Positions 15,924 to 17,213 of a stretch of DNA of 64,000 nt are shown here, piece after piece (positions within the stretch are counted from its first letter, which is position 1; every line of letters begins with the position of its first letter). The DNA lies in contig JAMLHH010000003.1 of NCBI GenBank assembly GCA_023957215.1, positions 337-64,336 of the forward strand, written 5' to 3'. Under the pieces are notes generated by a model. The model was given only the letters and a program-made list of their open reading frames with translations, ran no database searches and was not told the DNA's origin. The stretch comes from Chitinophagales bacterium. GTDB lineage: Bacteria; Bacteroidota; Bacteroidia; Chitinophagales; JADIYW01. The translations under genes were made by a program, and so were the position numbers.

Positions 15924-17213
15924 TTATCTAAAATCATTCAATGATCTACCCAAGTAAGGCATCACATTTCTAAATCCGATATAAGATTTTGCACTGTCTT
16001 GAAACTCCCAGTCTCTTGTGCTTGTTTGTAAGAAATAAGCGATATCTTTCCATGAACCGCCTCTTATCACTTTTCTCTTCATAGTAATAGGATCGTCTTT
16101 TTTAGCATCATAACGAATATCAGGATTCATATCATGCATAAAAGCATAAGAATTTTCAGCAAATGATGAAAGTGTCCATTCTGATACATTACCTGCCATA
16201 TTATACAAACCGTAATCATTCGGCCAGTAAGATTTTGCAGGAACAGTGTACATTCCGCCATCTTCCGGATAATTACCTCTACCCGGTTTGAAGTTAGCCA
16301 ATAGGCAACCTTTTGTATTTCTTATATAAGGCCCCCCCCAAGGATAAGGAGACAATTGCCTTCCACCTCTTGCGGCATATTCCCACTCGTGTTCAAATGG
16401 AAGCCTAAATTCTTCAGGAAATGCTTCTCCTTTCTTTTGTTTGAAAGAAGTCCACAATGACGTCCTCCAATAGGAGAAGGCGTTTGCTTGATTCCAATTG
16501 ACTCCTACGACCGGTTAATCGTCATTAGCCGGATGCGTATAATAAGATATTGTCATAGGTTCATTAAAAGAATATGTAAAATCTCTAATCCAGACATTCT
16601 CATCCGGCCAAATATATACGGTATTCTTTTCCATAAAAGATGAACGAGATTTTCTGTTTTCCATGTTCATAGCATCCGGATCAGTAGCCATTTCACGCCA
16701 CTTCATCCATTTGTATTCATAAGTTAATTTGGAAGGATCTAATTCTCTTCTACCATACAATCTGTCTTCAGGCGCATAAAACAATTCATTGACTTGCTGT
16801 GCATCTTCACCATCTTCTGACCAGTCAATAGGCATATCCCAATTAATATGTTGTTCGCCATTCTCATTAGAAGTTAGATGATCTCCACCTATCATCATGT
16901 GTGCGATAGAGTCTCTCACCCAGTCTGTAAATTGTCTGTATTCATTATTGGTTATTTCTGTTTCATCCATGAAGAAGCCTGAAATAGATATCTGTTTGGT
17001 GGGAGCTTGCAACGAATAAACGATATCTTGATCAGATGAACCGGTGTGAAAAGTACCCGAAGGAATATAAACCATACCGTAAGGCATCATTTTATTGTCC
17101 CATTTGGGTCTATCAGTAGCACCTACTAACTGACCTTCTAATCCGCTTTTCTTGTTACAGCTAATAAGCAGAGCTAAAAATGTAGCAATAATTAAAAATT
17201 TTTTTCTATTCAT
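15924..17213 (-). pseudogene. gldK: Gliding motility/T9SS lipoprotein GldK (PorK homolog, FGE/SUMF1 fold) interrupted by one in-frame TAA
   Basis: ORFs 16515-17213 (lipobox LLISC) and 15924-16457 share one frame. TAA at 16515-16517 gives ...YYTHPANDD*PVVGVNWNQANAFSYWRTS..., immediately before the conserved PVVGV.W start of the FGE-type domain. Confidence 0.85.

Follow-up and report, generated by a model that had tools for sequence, protein, structure and literature searches.

A premature stop codon in gldK and further lesions in type IX secretion genes of a Chitinophagales bacterium

The T9SS (type IX secretion system) gene gldK of an uncultured Chitinophagales bacterium is cut by a single in-frame TAA, and it is not the only damaged gene of its kind nearby. 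The DNA analyzed is a stretch of 64,000 nucleotides of contig JAMLHH010000003.1, hereafter the window, in which four T9SS-linked genes (gldK, gldN and two esterase genes, A and B) carry no fewer than eight disruptive lesions. We give a probability of about 70% to the reading that gldK is a recently inactivated gene in an ordinary, recent loss of the T9SS, in which the invariant Tyr233 codon changed from TAT to TAA and gldN and two cargo genes were also broken.

The gldK gene occupies 17213..15924 on the minus strand, and translation gives 232 codons, one in-frame TAA and a further 196 codons with the frame unchanged. An earlier, sequence-only reading of this DNA had reported the single TAA, the unchanged frame and the 232-aa N-terminal half correctly, leaving the strand unstated. 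The premature stop is codon 233 (TAA at 16517..16515; the next base is C), and the protein around it reads ...YYTHPANDD*PVVGVNWNQANAFSYWRT. The N-terminal fragment (16515..17213, minus strand; 232 codons plus the premature TAA) contains the lipoprotein signal and the first part of an FGE/SME-like fold. The C-terminal remnant (15924..16514, minus strand) is open and highly conserved over its 196 codons, and an open in-frame stretch of that length after a stop is not expected by chance in DNA of 35% GC. The NCBI annotation shows this gldK as two proteins, and the N-terminal fragment appears in NCBI nr as a separate protein of 232 aa.

On the NCBIfam model TIGR03525 (GldK/PorK), the two halves line up one after the other, the N half covering profile positions 3–218 and the C half positions 221–407. 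When the halves are joined with one residue (Tyr) at the stop, the match becomes a single stretch, positions 3–407 of 408, and scores 576.6 bits against a curated equivalog cut-off of 350 bits; separately, the fragments fall below that cut-off at 230.5 and 328.1 bits. The consecutive matches and the single-stretch joined match indicate that the halves are one interrupted gldK and not two genes. An uninterrupted frame is the mark of a functional GldK/PorK; it is present in all 81 relatives that were compared and is lost here. Production of two functional polypeptides from the gene was considered and rejected: the first start codon 3' of the stop is a TTG, 19 codons on, and a product initiated there would have neither the conserved PVVGVNW...WRT segment nor a signal peptide.

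GldK/PorK and GldN/PorN together build a large periplasmic ring or track, which the lipid on GldK tethers to the outer membrane. The lipobox of the protein studied here, LISC with Cys19 in MNRKKFLIIATFLALLISC..., was read directly from the translation. A second cysteine, Cys303 (16307..16305), is located in NTKGCLLANFKPG, which aligns with RGCFLGNFKPG of PorK (R-G-C-F motif); it lies 70 codons 3' of the premature stop and is therefore encoded and untranslated. Cys303 is the counterpart of F. johnsoniae GldK Cys343 and P. gingivalis PorK Cys356, which form disulfides with SprF and PorG and are essential for type-A export (PMC12635249).

The sequence-only reading had placed the stop just before the FGE-type domain, and this needs correction. 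The Pfam FGE-sulfatase model already matches residues 46–118 in the N half (profile positions 4–62), so the fold starts at about residue 46, and profile positions 92–254 are matched in the C half; the stop cuts inside the FGE/SME-like fold, past a GldK-specific insertion. The further expectation that truncation should kill GldK is supported, since the fragment would lose FGE-sulfatase positions 92–254 together with the cysteine whose counterpart is required for type-A export (PMC12635249).

To identify the ancestral codon, GldK was aligned with its relatives: 80 loci, mostly in MAGs of Chitinophagales, Sphingobacteriales and Saprospiraceae, came from scanning one genome for each species, and a cluster look-up added one more close relative (L081). 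The closest scan match has 82% protein identity. The position of the stop is Tyr in all 81 relatives (TAT in 69, TAC in 12), and the seven closest all have TAT. P. gingivalis PorK (PDB 9mzu/9ots; E = 4e-92) reads DDYPVVGISW at the same site. Because Tyr is found in every relative and TAT in the seven closest, a single T>A change (TAT to TAA) accounts for the gldK stop. It had been suggested that GldK/PorK proteins usually have a Tyr directly before PVVGV.W and that one TAY to TAA change might explain the stop; the 80 scan relatives, L081 and P. gingivalis PorK all agree with the first part, and the TAT codons of the seven closest relatives agree with the second. 

A stop that is derived from a Tyr codon and followed by 196 perfectly open codons might be leaky. 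Near-cognate tRNA-Tyr would read UAA-C at low frequency and yield a little full-length GldK, or the codon would be programmed or recoded. The C after the TAA is in keeping with this, as it is the base that most rarely follows a genuine TAA terminator in this window (2 of 32). We nevertheless consider a functional leaky stop barely credible. None of the 81 relatives carries a stop at codon 233, the 91 nt around and after the stop fold no better than shuffled sequences (z = -1.1), and the tRNAs in the 64-kb window are standard, including a normal tRNA-Tyr(GTA), with no suppressor tRNA among them. Programmed readthrough or recoding was rejected on the grounds that the stop is unconserved and the downstream structure is not significant. 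Genome-wide stop codon reassignment was rejected because TAA is the main terminator: of 44 window genes checked, it ends 32. A degree of Tyr-inserting leakage at the gldK stop is conceivable, although it would not rescue the system, because gldN is also broken: translation of that gene would need two frameshifts and two more readthroughs, so the ring could not form anyway.

The damage to gldN lies at the other end of the operon porP-gldK-gldL-gldM-gldN, in which the genes are separated by gaps of 98, 55, 34 and 22 nt. The sequence-only reading had called gldL, gldM and porP/sprF intact, and this stands for the porP/sprF-family gene (17312..18313, 333 aa), gldL (15215..15868, 217 aa) and gldM (13549..15180, 543 aa, with all four GldM domains), all on the minus strand. 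It had left gldN unmentioned, however, and with that gene broken too, a dead gldK amid sound operon partners is a misleading picture. The gldN pseudogene (12615..13526, minus strand) has four in-frame stops within 75 nt: TAA at 13052–13050, TAG at 13046–13044, TAA at 13001–12999 and TAA at 12986–12984. The first two belong to a run of four consecutive mismatched codons, where the window reads KK*R*R and relatives read SADTD; with the frame shifted by one base, the same DNA reads KNNDS and then AANPD. These two stops are best explained by one additional A in the A-run at 13058–13053 together with the loss of one base near 13043. Each of the other two stops is a Lys codon changed from AAA to TAA; the seven closest relatives have AAA or AAG there, and the second of these sites is Lys in 64 of 65 sequences. 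As encoded, the GldN match (TIGR03523, PF19841) is split into fragments of 158 and 111 aa with the four stops between them. The repaired protein matches TIGR03523 in one stretch, profile positions 37–280 of 280, at 163.2 bits against a cut-off of 85.9.

A separate observation concerns the cysteines of the operon products. The C-terminal tail of the PorP/SprF-family protein (...INHPRFL) contains no cysteine and so has no twin-cysteine motif of the kind by which F. johnsoniae SprF bonds GldK; GldK has just one cysteine besides that of the lipobox.

The locus found by cluster look-up, L081, has the identical gene order Omp85-DUF4271-HemD-PorP-gldKLMN, with intact gldK, gldL, gldM and gldN products of 427, 221, 542 and 299 aa, and the same genes are also present in loci L001–L006. 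The common gene order and gene content identify the gldKLMN copy in the window as the orthologous locus. In a collection of 15 billion proteins, the GldK N-terminal fragment, GldL and GldM each form a single-member cluster at 90% identity, and the only relative at 90% identity or more is the cluster mate of the GldK C-terminal fragment. That mate is the full-length GldK of relative P0123; over the corresponding part, it and the remnant have 90% identity or more, as their common 90%-identity cluster shows. One of the scan loci, L072 (JADJTE010000002.1, about 8693..16140), stands out in that its best single-ORF matches to porP, gldM and gldN cover 79%, 73% and 42% of the window proteins. The locus is away from the contig end and may contain frameshifts of long-read assembly, or it may represent another lineage with a damaged cluster.

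That the broken copy occupies the conserved orthologous locus bears on whether the T9SS could still be working. A second gldK and gldN, or a whole gldKLMN set, elsewhere in the genome might keep the system functional and leave the lesions real but harmless, and several Saprospiraceae relatives do have two gldN copies within one locus. In addition, 9.7 kb of T9SS-linked genes in the window are intact, including a 5.3-kb cargo ORF of 1752 codons, so the system may still be under selection; these genes may, however, be unhit simply because the loss was too recent. Besides the orthologous position of the broken copy, there is no gldK or gldN paralogue within the 64 kb, and two cargo genes are decaying too. 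A redundant copy therefore seems improbable to us. The intact state of gldL, gldM, porP and two cargo genes fits either a very recent loss or a second gldK and gldN elsewhere.

The broken cargo genes emerged from a six-frame scan for long ORF pairs split by a single stop, which gave three candidate pairs of substantial ORFs: gldK, 7774..6755 and 55911..57524, the third being two genuinely separate genes. The region 6700–9480 encodes two secreted BD-FAE-type esterases. Their genes are paralogues in tandem, and both end in a T9SS type-A sorting domain (Por_Secre_tail). Esterase A (8074..9382, minus strand) has a frameshift at or beside a short A-run near 8660. In esterase B (6752..8114, minus strand), an A-run near 7770 has a +1 insertion, and a TAA interrupts the frame at 7399..7397. 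Once reconstructed, the two proteins can be aligned over their whole length, with 51% identity over 419 aa (E = 2e-150), and each reads straight through the lesions of the other, so that each serves as a control for the other; by this comparison, both are judged to be pseudogenes. The window contains two more type-A cargo genes, and both are intact: a PHB-depolymerase-like esterase gene (4285..5433, minus strand; 382 aa with a complete sorting domain) and an S8 subtilase gene (32586..37844, plus strand; 1752 aa, with a sorting domain that exceeds the NCBIfam cut-off). Of the window's four type-A cargo genes, two are thus broken, and these are located 4–6 kb beyond gldN.

If gldK was inactivated in a recent loss of the T9SS, translation would end after 232 residues and leave a lipoprotein stub without Cys303 and without most of the FGE/SME-like core. 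Two indels and two Lys>TAA changes would have destroyed the gene for its ring partner GldN as well, and decay would have set in for two of the window's four type-A cargo genes. With GldK reduced to such a stub and GldN destroyed, standard decoding is predicted to give no ring and no type-A secretion. The locus would then record that the type IX secretion and gliding apparatus, or at least this copy of it, was recently lost as a system, and not a single odd stop. One plausible selective cause would be escape from phages that depend on gliding or the T9SS. In F. psychrophilum, phage resistance commonly arises through nonsense and frameshift mutations in gldK, gldL, gldM, sprA and gldJ, some of which revert (PMC9804748).

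Compared with the GldK/PorK proteins of the T9SS PorK-PorN ring (TIGR03525; PDB 9mzu, 9ots), the gene in the window is alike in its full-length joined match, its DDYPVVG motif, its lipobox Cys19, its Cys303 and the gene order porP-gldK-gldL-gldM-gldN. It is unlike them in that the frame is cut at codon 233 and no intact protein can be made by standard decoding. The phage-resistant F. psychrophilum isolates resemble the window in that gldK is hit in both and nonsense and frameshift lesions occur in both; the isolates also include an A insertion in a poly-A run of a flippase gene (PMC9804748). Each of those isolates was obtained in the laboratory, has a single lesion and has had its phenotype measured (PMC9804748), whereas the window has several lesions in several genes, with cargo decay, and is known from sequence alone. 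Pseudogene formation in general reductive evolution is similar insofar as several genes of one system are disrupted while unrelated neighbors are intact, and differs because gldK gives no sign of long-term relaxed constraint and the lesions lie in patches and are not spread out. Isocitrate lyase and malate synthase genes, which constitute a glyoxylate shunt, are adjacent at 22985..26201 (minus strand); together with the generally intact gene set, they argue against a strongly reduced symbiont genome.

The distribution of the lesions over the window was used to judge whether they are real. The remaining ORFs were annotated with Pfam and NCBIfam. T9SS-linked genes make up 9 of 47, and all four broken genes are among these nine (hypergeometric p about 7e-4), which argues against random sequencing error. 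No breakage was found in the 38 other window genes checked, and no family-matched ORF was truncated or split except a truncated IS630 transposase. A/T runs of five or more number 412 in intact genes, with no frameshift, and 38 in the four broken genes, with three frameshifts. Long reading frames of 1752, 1438 (rpoC, judging by its position and length), 1275 (rpoB), 1121 and 680 codons show no interruption. On this pattern, we favor real mutations over generic sequencing error.

The same observations weigh against a more specific concern, that the gldK stop and the gldN and esterase lesions are local assembly or consensus errors in a metagenome-assembled contig and that the genes are intact in the organism. 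Errors should not single out one functional system, the 412 A/T runs in other genes are free of frameshifts, and the long ORFs are uninterrupted. Moreover, the four separate substitutions that create a TAA would need a high rate of substitution error, which is not seen in the conserved neighbors. On the other side, the lesions form tight patches that mix substitutions with +/-1 indels, three of the four indels are at or beside A-runs, and the affected genes are otherwise well conserved. The contig name of L072 (tig...), which suggests long-read assembly, comes with fragmented gldM and gldN ORFs as well, and no independent assembly of the organism exists. We regard an artefact as unlikely, yet as an explanation that deserves appreciable weight, and the clustering of the lesions is the main reason for leaving it that weight.

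This clustering is evident in both ring genes. In gldK, seven changes specific to the window affect columns that do not vary among the seven closest relatives, and four of these changes lie in a patch of 18 codons (16515..16568, minus strand; permutation p = 0.009). The patch covers residues 216–233 and includes Y216F (TAT>TTT), R222I (AGA>ATA), Y230N (TAT>AAT) and the stop at Y233 (TAT>TAA), all of them single-base transversions. All four gldN lesions are confined to 75 of the gene's 912 nt (12984..13058; p = 0.002). Independent neutral mutations would not cluster in this way, and a locally bad consensus could. The patches may reflect a localized error-prone event, a short recombination patch or a locally poor consensus. 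It is also conceivable, if doubtful and in our estimate a little less probable than a redundant copy, that a few localized multi-mutation events hit the T9SS genes specifically, instead of slow random decay; in gldN, such an event would comprise two indels and two A>T nonsense changes. Such events could come from error-prone repair or recombination patches, or they could be a selected and possibly reversible switch-off in a natural population as a phage defense. 

Two sources of localized change were considered and rejected. FGE and C-type-lectin folds are common targets of diversity-generating retroelements; the changes in gldK are neither adenine-specific nor at the C terminus, and no reverse transcriptase family match was found among the window ORFs scanned. 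Gene conversion from within the window was rejected as there is no second copy of the gldK patch.

Returning to the recent loss of the T9SS, the rate of protein change gives an indication of its age. The ratio of the window-to-clade distance to the within-clade distance is 1.09 for gldK, compared with 1.10 for omp85, 1.32 for hemD and 1.22 for porP; the other genes of the operon have ratios of 1.21 (gldM), 1.37 (gldN) and 1.42 (gldL). Of 137 near-invariant columns in GldK, just 3 differ, the stop among them. No long-term relaxed selection on gldK was seen (1.09 versus 1.10–1.32 for the controls), which fits a very recent lesion. The absence of rate acceleration in gldK, together with the intact gldL, gldM, porP and two cargo genes, suggests that inactivation was recent when set against the nearest known relatives, whose proteins have diverged by roughly 20%.

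Provided that the lesions are real, the type IX secretion and gliding machinery has only just disappeared, or is disappearing, from this uncultured Chitinophagales lineage. The window would then offer a natural snapshot of the first steps, in which the ring subunits GldK and GldN went first and cargo genes are starting to follow. Mechanistically there is nothing new in this, as the knockout of gld/por genes by nonsense or frameshift mutation is well documented; the value lies mainly in annotation, where predictions of T9SS presence or absence from MAGs would score this genome as positive, and in the study of natural T9SS loss.

Several other features of the window were recorded during annotation. 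The IS630-family transposase ORF (28085..28726, plus strand) matches profile positions 65–273 of 299 and is preceded by a gap of 550 nt (27531..28085); it may be a truncated or frameshifted insertion sequence, or its N-terminal part may lie in another frame. Beside this remnant, a PIN-domain protein is encoded at 29014..29400 (plus strand), likely the toxin of a toxin-antitoxin pair, and the short gap upstream could hold the antitoxin. A protein of 379 aa (30984..32123, minus strand) has two matched stretches to NF041052, "OsmC-related (seleno)protein". A tetrapyrrole-methylase fold is encoded at two places on the minus strand: at 3483..4208, where the matches to RsmI models are below their cut-offs, and at 30187..30897, where the TP_methylase domain is matched over its full length.
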